Origin: Deltaproteobacteria bacterium
Lineage (GTDB): Bacteria > Myxococcota_A > UBA9042 > DTJE01
Direction of reading: 5' to 3'
DNA: 46,250 nucleotides
Assembly (NCBI GenBank): GCA_037442805.1
Contig: JBBIPO010000007.1
Location: 1-46,250 of the forward strand
Shown: positions 15,001-21,000 of the stretch, one piece after another
Layout: the number at the start of each line of letters is the position of its first letter
How positions within the stretch are numbered: the stretch's first letter is position 1
Position numbers: made by a program

Positions 15001-18000
15001 GCGGGTCGGGCCCGGCCCGACCGCGAAATCCTGGGTCTCGCCCTCGCCGGCCTTGAACAGACCCAGGCCCTTGGCGAAGAAGACCGTGAACTCGCCGGAT
15101 TTCTCGTTCGTCATCACGACGTCGTAGTTGGACCCGCCCGTCAGGCGGGCCGCGGCCAGGGCCGACGGCCCCTGGGTCTCGTCCACCGGGTACAGGACAC
15201 CCTCCTGGACCTTGAACGTCCCGTCCCCTTGGCCGACGAAGGGCTGGAACAGCGTGGTCGGCTTCCCGTCCGGCGTGGTCCGGAACTGGGCGACCACCGC
15301 GAGGTCGAGCACGCCGGGCTTGGAGGACTCGCGCTTGAGGTCGGCGACCACCGCGAGGGTCGGGGAGTCCCCGGCCCAGGTCCCGTACTGGTAGTCCAGC
15401 CCGGTCACCGCGTCGATCCCCACCTTCAGTTTGGGGGACATGTGCGAGGGGCCCTCCTGCATCAGGAGCCGCCCGAGGGTCGGTTCCTTCTTGTCCGCGG
15501 CGCTCGTGGCCTGCGAGGGGACGAGGAAATCGTCGTAGTTGTTCTTGTCCAGGTCCGCGCTCAGGAGGTCCACGGGGTTGCGGACGTACGCGAACAGGAC
15601 CCCCGCCTTCTCGGTCGGGAGGGTCGAATCCTCGGACGGGACCAGGATGTGAATCCTGGCCTTGCCCTCGGCGTCCGTCCCGAGGACGCCGAGGTCCCGG
15701 TGGGATGGAAGGGCCGGCAATGGCTTGACATACCGGCCGGCCGTGACCGCGCGCGGCGCGAACCCCAGGCGCACCATGGGGGGGGCGGCCAGCCGGCGGG
15801 GGGAGGAGGGGAGCGCCGCCAGGACCTGGAGCCTCTGATTCGTCCGGTCGAGGATCACGATGTCAGGATGGGAGCCGCCCGTCATGGAGGCCAGGGCCAG
15901 GTCCGATGCCTCTCGGCTCGCCAGGTAGGCCGGACCCTCATCGAAGGCCCCCTTGCTGTTTCCCCACTCGATCAGGACCATGGCGGAGTCCGGACACCAG
16001 ACCACGAGGTCGCCCAGGCCGTCTCCGTCCAGGTCCGCCCCGAGGATTCTGGACGGGTTCAGGCCCGCCGGATAGGCGGCGGTGACCGAGACGATTCCGA
16101 GGCCCGTGCCCGGGTCTGGAACCAGGTGGAACAGGGTATCCAGGTCTCCGTCGGCCACGAGGAGCGTATCGCCCTTGGCCCCGGAAACCGGGGGGCCGAG
16201 CACCAGGGACGTCGGAGTGGTCAGGGGCACGGGCGTGCCCGTCCCGGGGTTGTACTGGAGGTCGGAGTTGATGCCGACCAGGAGCGTGCCGGTTGCGCCG
16301 TTGACGGGAAACACGGTCACGACCCCGGAGGACCGGCGGGTGACGAGCACGTCGTTGTCGCCGTCCGCGGTGAAGTCGCCGATCGCGGCGAGATACGGTT
16401 CTTCGACGCCTCCATAGGTACTGAACCCGGACCAGGTCCCCGGGGACTTCGACAGCGCGACCGCGACCGAGGCGCTGCCCTTGGCGAGCGTGACCACGAG
16501 GTCGGGCTCGTCGTCGCGGTCGAGGTCGCCGGCCACGATGTCATTGGCCCGTGCGTCGAGCATCGCCTTCCAGGTGGCGGTTGCGGGAAAGGTGCCGGCC
16601 GCATTCTGCGGGAAGAACTGGACCGTGGACTTGTCGCCGGTCTCCGTCGTGACGAGGAGGACGTCCTCGAGTCGGTCGCCGTTCAGGTCCTCGACCCGGG
16701 CGAGGGACACGGGGACCGTGACCAGGGAGGCGGCCAGGTCCAAGGTCGCCTGCGGTCCTGGCCTCAACAGATGGAGTCCCTTGTTCCCCCACCCGAGGAG
16801 GCCTGGCCCCTTCGCCGTCTCGATGCCCGCGACCCGCTCGATGGCCAGGTCCTTGGGGAGGGTCCACTGGCTCGCGGACTGGAACGAGGCCGGTGGAACG
16901 AAGTTGACCCAGTAGGACAGGGGAGACGGCGTAACGTTGCCGTTCTTGTCGCTGGCCGTGATCTCGACGGTGTTCTTCCCAACGAGGAGTTCATGCGTGC
17001 GGACCGTCACCGCATTCTGCAAGCCCGGCGCGGGGTTCACGAGGTCGGCGACCGCGTCCCCGTTCACGCGGATGACGATGTGTTCCGTGCCGACCCCGTT
17101 CCCGTCGCTGACCGACACGCGGATCACGAGGTCCGACAGGAAGTTGGAGTAGGGCGGCGTGCTGGGCGGATACAGCTCGACCTTGGGGGGGGTGTTGTCC
17201 ACCTTGACGGGGACCCCGGCGGAGCCCTTGCGCCCGTCCGCGGCCTCGACCTGGCAGAAGAAGGTATAGGACCCGTCCGCGACCTGGGCGGAGTTCACCA
17301 CGAGCGTGACCTCACCGTCCTGCGGGATTGTCACGACCTCCCCGACCTTGACGGGTGATAGCCCCGAGGCCAGGAACGCGAAGACGACCCGCGAGATCGT
17401 CTCGCCCTTCGGGTCGGTCGCCGTGGCCGCCACTTCGAAGCTCCCCGTCAGGATGCGGTTCGCCATAGGCTTGTGGATGGTGCAGGTGGGCACATCGGCG
17501 GGCGGCAGGTCGGGCTCCGTCGCGTCGGCGGTCTCCACCGCATCGGTCGGCGGGAAGATGGGGGTCCTCTTCTTGCTCCCGCCGCATCCGAAAAGGATCA
17601 GGGCCAAGCCCAGCCCGATCCTGACCAGCACCATCGCCGATCGTCCCATGGTCACGCGCCTCGGCCACACCCGGCTACATCTTCTTGGAAGCGACCGAAA
17701 CCGTCAAGAAAACGACGGGGTTTCTCGGGTTCGAGATTTCCCGCCGCGGTTACCGTTCGCCGGGGCGGCTCTCCCCCTCGATCACCTGGACCACGGCCGC
17801 GTCCACGAGGACGTCCCGGCTGCCGGGGCGGACCGCGTTGCGCGCCCCGCTCCCGAACGCGACCACCACGCGGTCCCCGGGCCCTGCGTCCAGGCAGTCC
17901 ACCGCGACCACGACCCGTCCCGTGAAGCGCTCGCCGCACCCGTCGTGACCCGTCAGGGCCACGAGCAGTAGTTTGCGGTCTGCGAGCCTCGGGGCCTTGC

Positions 18001-21000
18001 GCGTGGCCCAGACCTCGCCGATGACGACGCCCCGGTTCATCCCGGCCTCTCAAGAAACGTGGGCGTGGGCGTAGGCGTGGGCGACTCCGCGAACGCCCCG
18101 GAACGTCATCCACTCCACCCTTTCATCCATCCGGGCGCGCGGGCCCATGGCAACTCTCCTGAAGGACGGCGGGTGACCGGCCCGGCGCGAAGCGGAAACG
18201 GGGACCCTGGCATGCGTCCCGGTACACCTCGACACGATCGACGATCGCCGCGATCGAGGCCTCGACCGGGTGCCGCGTGTCCCCGAGGGCCCACCGCGCA
18301 GGCAGTCCCAGACAGACCACCACGTCCTGACCGACCTCGGCCCCGACCGGGTCCACCGCGACGAGGTGGTCGCACTCGTGGTCCGGCCAGGACCAGGCCA
18401 GGGGGCGCACCAGGAGCAGTTTCCTGCCCAACAGATACGGGTTCTTGCGCGTGGCCCAGACCTGGCCGATCACCCTCCCGAGGATCATCATGTCCTCCCG
18501 GTCGCTCTGGAAGGATCTCTCCGGTACACCCGGACCGTGACAGAGGCCGTGTCCGGGACCCTGTCCGTGTCCGCCACGGAGTCCCTGCCGGACCCCGGAT
18601 GCCGGACCCCCGACGCCCGACCCCGGCCCCCCGTTTCCCGGACCGCGGCGCCCGCAGTCACGCGCCCACCACGGCCTCGTCCACGATCGCGATGACGCAG
18701 TGCTTGGTCGGGACGAGCGGGTCCGTGACCAGGTCACGCACGCGGCTCCCGATGGCCACGAGCACGCACTGCCCCACGTCCGCGCCCAGCGGGTCCACGG
18801 CCAGGAGGGACGTGGACGCCAGACGGGCGGGTGACACATCATGGCCGAGGCGGAGACCTTCCCGGGCGCCGCGCAAGGTCACGGGCCGTACCTCCACCAC
18901 GCGCCGACCACGCAGCGTCTCGGTCTGCTTCGCCCCCCAGACCGTCCCGATGACCTGGCCCAGGATCACGCGCGGTCCCCCTCGCGGATCAAGTCCGCCA
19001 CCGCTCGCGCCTCCTCGTCGAGAATCTCCTTCGCGTACGAGTAGATCAGGCGTTCCGCGATGGCGCCGAGGAGAAAGACCTCGACCTTCAGTTCGCCCGA
19101 CACCTCCCGCACCGCCCCCCCGTTCCGGCCGGCGCGGATGCGCATCTCGCCGTGATTCTTGAGGAGGGCCGCCACTCCCGGCGTCGTCGGGACGTTGCGG
19201 TAGGTCACGACCCCCGTCTTCAGGTCGGCCTCGGATTCCTCGACCCACTCCATCCAGCGCGGCTCGACCTTCTTGGGGCCCACGGACCGGATGGCCGGGA
19301 CCGGGAGGTACCGGACGCGCCGGCGGACGCGGCCGTTCTCCTCGGACCACGACAGGGTCTCGGCCTCGGTGATCCGGGTCAGCCGGGGCAGGAGCCTCTC
19401 GACGATTCCGCGATCGAAAAGCGTCCGGACCAGCGTGGAACCGTCGCATGGGAACTCGTGTTCCATCCGGTATTTCATGGGATTCCCTTCCGGTGCGGTT
19501 CCGGCTCGGAACTCGCGGACCAGCCCCATCCTACCCTGAACCGTGCGATGGGTTCAACTGCTTGACCCGTGGCGGGCTCCGTCCTACCGTACCCGCCGCG
19601 AATGGGACGGCGACCCGCAAGACCGCGACGTCAGGCGGCCCTGGCCATCTACGTGGGCTTGATCACCACGACCGCCCTGAGCCTCGTCCTGATCTATCTG
19701 GGCGCGCTTGCCCCCACGACCCTGGCCGTCTTTTCGTTTGCAGCGGTCCTCGCCGGGGCCTTGCTCCTGTCCTGGGGGGCCGAGGCCGCGGAGTTCATGG
19801 TCAGCCAGGGGTTTGCTGTGGCCGTGGTGGCTTTCCTCCAGGTCCTGCCCGAGTTCATGGTCGAGGGGGTCATCGCGTACGAGGGCAAGGTGCCGTTGAT
19901 GATGGCGAACCTGACCGGGTCCAACCGGCTCCTGATGGGGGTCGGGTGGACCCTCGTCTATTTCACCGCCTTCTTCTCAGCGCGGGGGGTCGGGGGCTGG
20001 CGGCACGCCGTCGTCCTGAGGCGCGAGAACGTGGTCGAGGTCCTGTTCCTCTTTCTGGCCTCCATGTATTTCCACGTGATCCTGGTCAAGCGCCGTCTGT
20101 GGCTCGAGGACACGCTCGTGCTGGGGCTCCTGTTCGTTGCGTACCTGTGGACGCTCCTGCGCCTTCCCCCCGAGGAGGAGGAGGACGTCGCGTTTCTCCC
20201 CCTCCCGCCACGGGAGGTCGCCGCCATCGCGAGCACGCGCCTGCGGGTCGCGGTCGTGGTGGGGCTGTTCGTGATCGGGGGCGGGACGATGGTCCTGGTC
20301 GCCCATCCCTTCTTGGAGGGCATGGAGGCGGTGGCACTGTCGCTCGGGGTCTCGTCGTTCGTGTTCGTGCAGTGGGTCGCGCCGTTCCTGACCGAGATCC
20401 CTGAGAAGATCACCGCCTTCTACTGGGCCCGTTCCGTGCGCAGCGCCAACATGGGCCTGACCAACCTCGTGTCGTCCAAGGTGAACCAGTGGACGCTGCT
20501 CGTGGCCATGGTCCCGCTGATGTTCTGGGCGTCCCCGCGAGGGGGCGAGCCGATTCACCTCGACGGTCACCAGCTGGAGGAACTCTTCCTCTCGATGGCG
20601 ATGAGCGTCTATGGGGCCGCGGCGCTGGCCAAGCGGCGCTTCACGCTCGAGAATGCGCTCGTGCTCTTCGTTCTGTGGTTCGTCCAGTTCGTGTCGCCGG
20701 GCCGGTTCGTGCCCCCGCACGATTCGTACTTCGATTTTCCGAACTGGCTGTGGGAATCCTGGAGGGGCCTGACCACGGGGCTGTTCGGGGTTCTTACCAT
20801 CGCGGAGTTCGTCCGCTTCCGGCGGGAATGGGACGTGGTCGGGGACCTCCGCCACACGTGGCAACTGGTGCGGGCCGCGCGCGGGCGGCGGGAAGGGGGT
20901 CCATGAGCGAGGCTCGCAAGGGTGTCCGGCTTCAGCGTCTTCTGGCCGAGGCCGGCATCGCGTCCCGCCGCAAGGCCGAAGCCCTGATCCGGGAGGGCCG

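Follow-up and report, generated by a model that had tools for sequence, protein, structure and literature searches.

The window analysed here is the 46,250-nucleotide stretch (positions 1 to 46,250, forward strand) of contig JBBIPO010000007.1 from the Deltaproteobacteria bacterium assembly GCA_037442805.1 (GTDB lineage Bacteria; Myxococcota_A; UBA9042; DTJE01). Its minus strand carries four genes in line, which encode a DUF2505 protein of the SRPBCC superfamily followed by three paralogs, EutN-A, EutN-B and EutN-C, of the EutN/CcmL family (PF03319), the vertex proteins (BMC-P) of bacterial microcompartment (BMC) shells (Table 1). We refer to this operon, together with its orthologs in other genomes, as Group 1. 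An initial annotation, made from the sequence alone, reported three co-oriented EutN/CcmL-type open reading frames (ORFs), the first of them coupled through a GTGA overlap to an SRPBCC-like ORF. Because the G+C content of the window is ~70%, the ORFs were verified by profile searches, which placed all three in EutN/CcmL and the upstream one in DUF2505; the stop/start overlap is present as described. The locus is real, strongly conserved and more organised than could be seen at first, and it belongs to an already known kind, that of scattered vertex genes.

Table 1. Features of the window discussed in the text (aa, amino acids; nt, nucleotides; AF2, AlphaFold2)
Feature	Position	Strand	Evidence or remark
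DUF2505/SRPBCC protein, 170 aa	18966..19478	-	PF10698, 37 bits (cut-off 26.9); AF2 model; Foldseek
GTGA stop/start overlap, DUF2505/EutN-A	18966..18969	-	sequence
EutN-A, 103 aa	18658..18969	-	PF03319, 58.9 bits
A-B spacer, 166 nt, with 14-nt x2 tandem duplication	18492..18657	-	folding against shuffles; Rfam
EutN-B, 122 aa (121 from the second ATG)	18123..18491	-	PF03319, 80.1 bits
B-C spacer, 82 nt, with CCCACG-type hexamer ~x4	18041..18122	-	folding against shuffles
EutN-C, 96 aa	17750..18040	-	PF03319, 68.2 bits
Terminator-like GC-rich hairpin, then UUUUCUU	17704..17747	-	RNA folding, z-score only -1.3
Lipoprotein, 1031 aa, Ig-like and FG-GAP/VCBS repeats	14575..17670	-	Pfam
Na+/Ca2+ exchanger family membrane protein	19569-20906	+	between RluB and the operon
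NAD-dependent epimerase/dehydratase gene with in-frame TAG at 37597-37599	37048-37974	+	sequence

All three EutN proteins score above the PF03319 cut-off of 25 bits across the full domain (profile positions 1-83). The fold check rests on an AF2 model of one of the three paralogs, EutN-B (predicted local distance difference test, pLDDT, 85.5), which matches every class of solved BMC-P subunit, with template modelling (TM) scores, normalised to the target, of 0.66-0.83 against CcmL, GrpN, the BMC-P of Haliangium ochraceum (HO), EutN and CsoS4. EutN-A, the most divergent of the three, has a 13-15-aa loop insertion and a GADVGQ motif; EutN-B is characterized by a WY-loop, the VVVCLG and GAEVGQ motifs and a conserved C-terminal PxFxFxxGxxP tail (34-ortholog alignment), and EutN-C by the DAGPGD and FGSGARNA motifs. 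The paralogs share only 27-40% identity with one another, which bears out the divergence claimed initially; across lineages, the orthologs of A, B and C retain 53-59%, 62-70% and 66-72% identity, respectively. In a neighbour-joining (NJ) tree of 51 BMC-P sequences, in which the HO type is represented by BMC-P of the main locus, the three ortholog clades are recovered with bootstrap values of 85% (A), 85% (B) and 84% (C), and the deep nodes are weak, with 19% for the joint A+B+C node. We read A, B and C as three old, non-redundant BMC-P paralogs.

The B-type clade is broad: EutN-B is the best match for 52 of 150 representatives of 50%-identity clusters, its metagenome orthologs form at least 120 distinct 90%-identity clusters, and all 120 matches listed in the EutN-B homology search are B orthologs with at least 61% identity. 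The 50%-identity representatives extend to outgroups as well. The PxFxFxxGxxP tail is shared by the EutN-B orthologs (window positions 18207-18491, minus strand, and P0220-P0339); a 'Polyangia' subclade keeps the canonical GAGVGE where Group 1 has GAEVGQ.

The upstream gene is assigned to the SRPBCC superfamily by its PF10698 match above the cut-off and by its modelled fold, so that the SRPBCC-like call of the initial annotation holds. The AF2 model (pLDDT 94) shows a helix-grip SRPBCC (Bet v 1-like) fold with a long C-terminal helix, and Foldseek retrieves TTHA0849 (E = 2e-8), polyketide aromatase/cyclases (ARO/CYC), PR-10/Bet v 1 proteins and the Ups1 lipid carrier; the fold is common to all of these, whereas sequence identity to them is only 13-19%. 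The start codon is placed at the ATG at 19478; since the homologs, which are ~170 aa long, begin at the same MKY, the 187-aa form starting from 19529 is probably an over-extension. In the alignments, neither the EutN nor the DUF2505 proteins show an N-terminal signal peptide. The SRPBCC protein probably binds a small molecule or a lipid and acts as partner or cargo of the vertex proteins; we found no paper that links EutN with DUF2505.

No gene for the hexameric shell-facet protein (BMC-H) was detected in the 46-kb window, either by six-frame phmmer/hmmsearch with three queries, one of which (HO-5815) was confirmed to be identical to a PDB entry, or by a hidden Markov model (HMM) built from 119 BMC-H sequences, which was used for all locus sets below. 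Pfam annotation of the window ORFs reveals no aldehyde dehydrogenase, PduL/phosphotransacylase (PTAC) or aldolase, and both the missing BMC-H pattern and the missing aldehyde dehydrogenase and phosphotransacylase had been noted in the initial annotation. The other ORFs encode housekeeping and envelope proteins only, including Mfd, peptidyl-prolyl isomerase (PPIase), LspA, isoleucyl-tRNA synthetase (IleRS), S9, a MetH-like protein, a carbamoyltransferase, a sulfatase, RluB and the Na+/Ca2+ exchanger. A satellite locus is defined as one that encodes PF03319 or PF00936, never both, and lacks core enzymes, in a genome whose main locus, with BMC-H and BMC-P, lies at another place (Axen 2014; Sutter 2021, PMC8217296); as to the locus itself, the window contains PF03319 without PF00936 and without core enzymes. 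It is a vertex-gene site free of shell-facet and enzyme genes. PADLOC yielded zero matches in the window, and a reading of the locus as anti-phage defence was rejected on this ground.

The same four genes recur well beyond this contig. GTDB species genomes were scanned with the EutN-A alignment and then with HMMs, and the Group 1 operon was found in 10 GTDB Myxococcota species; together with the loci reached through DUF2505 homologs, it is present in 19 loci. Its carriers include the assemblies GCA_964470365.1 (CAYYCO01), DUVQ01, DYKK01, CALJUR01, JARKOL01, JADHTP01, CAZFVA01, VGRB01, CAIZWN01 and JAGOFO01 as well as a 3.2-Mb contig that encodes protein P0083. All genomes with the operon are metagenome-assembled genomes (MAGs), and the sequences inspected reach ~10 kb to the left and right of every locus; one further locus on a 1-Mb scaffold (L001) was excluded for N-gaps within the triplet. 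The orthology of A, B and C between loci is strictly 1:1:1, and their order A-B-C never changes, so that the SRPBCC-plus-three-EutN arrangement, whose conservation in relatives had been left as a question, is kept, and with it the feature of catalogued triplets that three BMC-P paralogs stay together. DUF2505 and EutN-A overlap by 4 nt (ATGA or GTGA) in 12/12 loci checked. The DUF2505 homologs form a tight family of Myxococcota/"Deltaproteobacteria" MAGs; the three EutN genes follow DUF2505 in every sampled lineage at 51% identity or more and are absent in the three sampled homologs at 45% or less.

Several Group 1 loci show peculiarities of their own. A 377-bp insertion in the 3' tail of EutN-B, present in L002 (10185-10576), L003, L010 (11150-11535) and L022 and absent from L008 and L009, is confined to some members of one species-level lineage; it yields a 110-118-aa ORF without a Pfam hit and shows neither terminal inverted repeats nor an Rfam match. 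In L011 (GCA_025563055.1), the array ends after EutN-B, and from 10507-11149 onward large MopE-repeat proteins replace EutN-C and the downstream FG-GAP gene, which reflects either a rearrangement or a mis-assembly. ADurb.Bin058, an HO-type digester MAG of the 2021 BMC catalog, was considered as the abundant P0083 lineage and rejected, as its BMC-P proteins are 96 and 143 aa long versus 102/107/88 aa.

The three paralogs have counterparts in a second, distinct operon. First seen in three Myxococcales MAGs as four tandem EutN genes without DUF2505, this sister operon (Group 2) consists of EutN A-B-C-D followed by a gene for a ~200-aa ACT-domain protein and then by DUF711 (PF05167), in invariant order in 35 loci (the related loci are L024, L026, L094, L096, L097, L099 and L103-L182); carriers include CAIXZC01, CALFHQ01, CAZJHX01 and the 303-kb WOOD18-1 scaffold. 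Copies 1-3 of the quadruplet group with A, B and C in the clades supported at 85, 85 and 84%, and the fourth copy, D, forms its own clade (89%); by this tree, the window genes A, B and C have their orthologs in genes 1-3 of the A-B-C-D/ACT/DUF711 operon. Compared with other BMC-P proteins, A-D are most similar to the first members of EutN pairs from the host phyla of FRAG1 (38-43% identity), one of the FRAG1-8 types of the 2021 BMC catalog, in which shell genes are dispersed over up to six sites remote from the enzymes (Sutter et al. 2021, PMC8217296). With the ACT protein as seed, a scan of metagenomes recovered 80 loci. Among the 33 with at least 1.5 kb of upstream sequence, the array is complete with all four genes in 19, partial in 2 and missing in 12; all complete arrays (21/21) have the order ABCD, and all arrays cut by a contig end (20/20) are suffixes of ABCD. 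The ACT and DUF711 genes are absent from the window and from Group 1 loci.

The long ACT protein begins with an N-terminal module of ~45 aa that resembles the C-terminus of PduM (PF15953) and TIGR02536 eut_hyp, both with scores below threshold. Behind this module lie a conserved amphipathic helix and a Pro/Ala-rich linker, and the protein ends in the ACT domain. Helix and linker together are encapsulation-peptide-like; both this and the module similarity are suggestive rather than conclusive. No function was found in the literature for DUF711. The A-B-C-D/ACT/DUF711 operon is apparently undescribed, though it resembles FRAG4 of the catalog. A more distant EutN array, with three full copies and fragments, lies in L098 (4830-6290) beside type VI secretion genes (VgrG, PAAR, DUF2169); BMC-H was not found within 15 kb of it.

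It seems likely, and we hold this with moderate confidence, that the window contains a new operon variant of the vertex set of a fragmented microcompartment. EutN-A, -B and -C would most likely assemble as pentameric caps, either homomeric or mixed. With these caps, the vertices would be closed or modified in a fragmented BMC that has its hexamer and trimer genes at other sites of the genome, as known from the FRAG types. The overlap of stop and start codons would keep the SRPBCC protein in a fixed ratio to EutN-A, and this protein would probably serve as a co-translated ligand-binding partner or cargo. This proposal builds on the observed family, fold, operon structure, orthology and conservation, and on the relation to the A-B-C-D/ACT/DUF711 operon. 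It is supported by the PF03319 matches, the EutN-B fold and the fixed, 1:1:1 conserved operon; by the sister operon, which mirrors FRAG4, a type that has a standard BMC-H; by the encapsulation-peptide-like anatomy and PduM-like module of the long ACT protein; and by the documented existence of scattered, enzyme-free vertex sites along with the precedent of co-assembly in CsoS4A/B.

Several observations weigh against this proposal. The GAGxGE stretch, which in the HO shell structure lies at the pentamer edge, is replaced in all three Group 1 paralogs (GADVGQ, GAEVGQ and DAGxGD), and the replacements are themselves conserved; the canonical form is retained in some Group 2 copies and in the Polyangia-type B subclade. 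The NCBIfam equivalog models of EutN, CcmL and CsoS4A/B are not reached, the best scores being 22-49 bits against cut-offs of 89-125. In the tree, with its weak deep nodes, A, B and C, and likewise D, did not join the clades of the second (78%) and third (89%) members of canonical triplets, represented by ACI-like and FRAG5-like loci (a Phycisphaerae locus and a Thermoanaerobaculia locus). None of the conserved partners, the SRPBCC protein in Group 1 and the ACT and DUF711 proteins in Group 2, is a known BMC enzyme, and the 2021 BMC catalog mentions neither DUF2505 nor DUF711 (Sutter et al., PMC8217296). Finally, the BMC-H HMM gave 0 hits in 375 kb around the 19 Group 1 loci and 0 hits in 369 kb around the 35 Group 2 loci, and the proposal depends on BMC-H genes that we infer to lie elsewhere in the carrier genomes.

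The local absence of BMC-H, taken by itself, is uninformative, because the EutN pairs from FRAG1 host phyla show the same absence (0 hits of the same HMM in 61 loci, 919 kb), and FRAG1 genomes are known to encode BMC-H elsewhere (Sutter et al. 2021, PMC8217296). The HMM was positive in 9/9 control loci.

Rather less probable, and on balance doubtful in our judgement, is a function independent of any shell, whereby the ordered A-B-C(-D) paralogs build a hetero-oligomeric particle, such as a cap or a small cage, in genomes devoid of BMC-H, and scaffold or regulate the SRPBCC protein in the window and the ACT/DUF711 pair in the sister operon. Such a role would account for the lack of BMC-H in all ~744 kb around the 54 loci of both operon types, the invariant gene order with tight coupling to non-BMC proteins, the altered yet conserved GAGxGE stretch of Group 1 and the presence of three to four vertex paralogs, more than the 12 vertices need; a weak further point is that no second canonical BMC-P locus of the same assemblies appears among the best 80 genome-scan hits. 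However, PF03319 has to date been regarded as a family exclusive to BMCs, the EutN pairs of FRAG1 phyla equally lack a local BMC-H though FRAG1 genomes have one, and in FRAG4 a standard BMC-H accompanies a comparable set of genes. The PduM-like module and the encapsulation-peptide-like anatomy of the long ACT protein also speak for a shell, and the absence of BMC-H is known from the locus surroundings of MAGs, not from whole genomes. If the paralogs do act without a shell, they would provide the first case of the BMC vertex fold working outside one.

The remaining explanations are minor and disfavoured by the evidence. An ordinary HO-type satellite, supplying the second and third triplet members to a Haliangium-type metabolosome, is improbable. 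Myxobacterial HO-type BMCs do split their BMC-P triplets over main and satellite loci, and a Myxococcota-like contig yielded an HO type I main locus. In a search of a 5.8-billion-protein set with HO-5815, the best 120 of 8000 scored candidates are all HO-like, and an HO-like BMC-H on a 538-kb scaffold from a different sample belongs to a plain HO type I main locus without any link to EutN arrays. Yet the HO satellite encodes two BMC-P and an aldolase, as opposed to three BMC-P and an SRPBCC protein with no aldolase here; in the tree, A, B and C group apart from HO5814-type proteins; and HO components are found near 0/19 Group 1 loci.

Even less likely is an envelope module, in which the EutN array and the FG-GAP/VCBS lipoprotein encoded downstream would act together. 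In the majority of Group 1 species, the operon is flanked by a divergent RluB gene upstream and a gene for a ~1050-aa FG-GAP protein downstream, the latter following the triplet in 8/10 GTDB species loci. The FG-GAP protein carries a lipobox signal peptide in the window copy and in all ten orthologs inspected; it is thus exported, whereas the EutN and DUF2505 proteins have no visible signal peptide. The terminator-like hairpin directly past the EutN-C stop, probably the end of the operon (a tentative call, given its z-score), separates EutN-C from the FG-GAP gene; RluB, a housekeeping gene, is just as well conserved in place on the opposite flank, a sign of plain synteny; and Group 2 loci lack the FG-GAP gene. 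We therefore regard the latter, an exported lipoprotein gene beyond the hairpin, as a neighbour rather than a partner; it probably forms a separate transcription unit, and its product is probably no cytoplasmic partner of the EutN proteins. That the locus is a decaying remnant of a lost microcompartment locus, as the missing shell-facet and enzyme genes and the non-canonical GAGxGE motifs might suggest, is effectively refuted by the conservation of the operon, namely its intact ORFs, 1:1:1 orthology, fixed order and a coupling kept even though DUF2505 is only ~50% identical between lineages, and by the number of distinct EutN-B clusters in metagenomes.

The initial annotation described structured repeats in the spacers between the paralogs, a claim that did not survive scrutiny. 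The spacers contain just two short tandem duplications, a 14-nt x2 repeat at 18586-18613 and a ~6-nt x4 repeat at 18058-18081; they fold no better than dinucleotide shuffles (z = -0.79 and +0.31) and match no Rfam family. The orthologous spacers are short or missing, those of L006 being reduced to 12 nt and a 4-nt overlap. The spacers were accordingly rejected as RNA elements. Elsewhere in the window, the Na+/Ca2+ exchanger gene is found between RluB and the operon only here and in L014, the other Group 1 loci being without it at this place, and the epimerase/dehydratase gene interrupted by TAG could be a pseudogene, a sequencing error or a case of read-through.

It is a recognised puzzle that many BMC loci retain several BMC-P paralogs although a shell needs only 12 pentamers, and the catalog takes this as a hint of an additional role of BMC-P (PMC8217296). 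The present locus and the sister operon offer a handle on this surplus, with three to four individually conserved paralogs, invariant gene order and abundance in metagenomes, and with coupling to defined non-enzyme partners, either the SRPBCC protein or the ACT/DUF711 pair. If the locus is indeed a vertex set of a fragmented microcompartment, it adds members to the enigmatic 'fragmented' BMCs, along with candidate cargo or partners.

Among the known systems, the H. ochraceum satellite was the precedent named in the initial annotation. Satellite BMC-P loci are documented, and H. ochraceum shares with the window a myxobacterial host and three BMC-P genes per genome, some of them at a satellite site. 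It is nevertheless a poor analogue: its satellite consists of two BMC-P and an aldolase (PMC8217296), its main locus has the composition BMC-T (trimer)/H/P/aldehyde dehydrogenase/T, and A, B and C share only 30-40% identity with HO-5814, from which they stand apart in the tree. The alpha-carboxysome proteins CsoS4A and CsoS4B, adjacent and always co-occurring BMC-P paralogs for which heteropentamers are possible, provide a precedent for mixed assemblies of the window paralogs; their genes, however, lie inside a full carboxysome operon with hexamers and cargo, and A, B and C miss the CsoS4 equivalog cut-offs by a wide margin.

The BMC-P triplets and FRAG types of the catalog come closer. A catalog triplet combines a gray, an orange and one other clade member, and FRAG6 and FRAG7 have co-localised BMC-P triplets at a separate, shell-only site (Sutter et al. 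2021, PMC8217296). These loci and the window alike keep divergent PF03319 paralogs together, away from BMC-H and enzymes, so that a scattered, enzyme-free vertex site is not novel as such. The window differs in that A, B and C did not join the second- and third-member clades in the NJ tree, in the DUF2505 coupling, which is unreported in the catalog, and in its uncultured Myxococcota host. FRAG4, from Candidatus Marinimicrobia, includes four BMC-P, assigned to four major clades, a standard BMC-H and a protein that ends in an ACT domain and has an N-terminal region specific to BMCs (PMC8217296). The sister operon likewise has four BMC-P and a ~200-aa C-terminal-ACT protein with a specific N-terminal region, and differs by the presence of DUF711; the window itself, with three BMC-P and an SRPBCC protein and with neither ACT nor DUF711, is not FRAG4-like. 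The closest relatives of the window genes are those of the A-B-C-D/ACT/DUF711 operon that resembles FRAG4. What is new compared with these systems is the coupling to an SRPBCC protein, possibly a lack of BMC-H in the genomes concerned, and the orthology of A-B-C to a widespread A-B-C-D/ACT/DUF711 operon.

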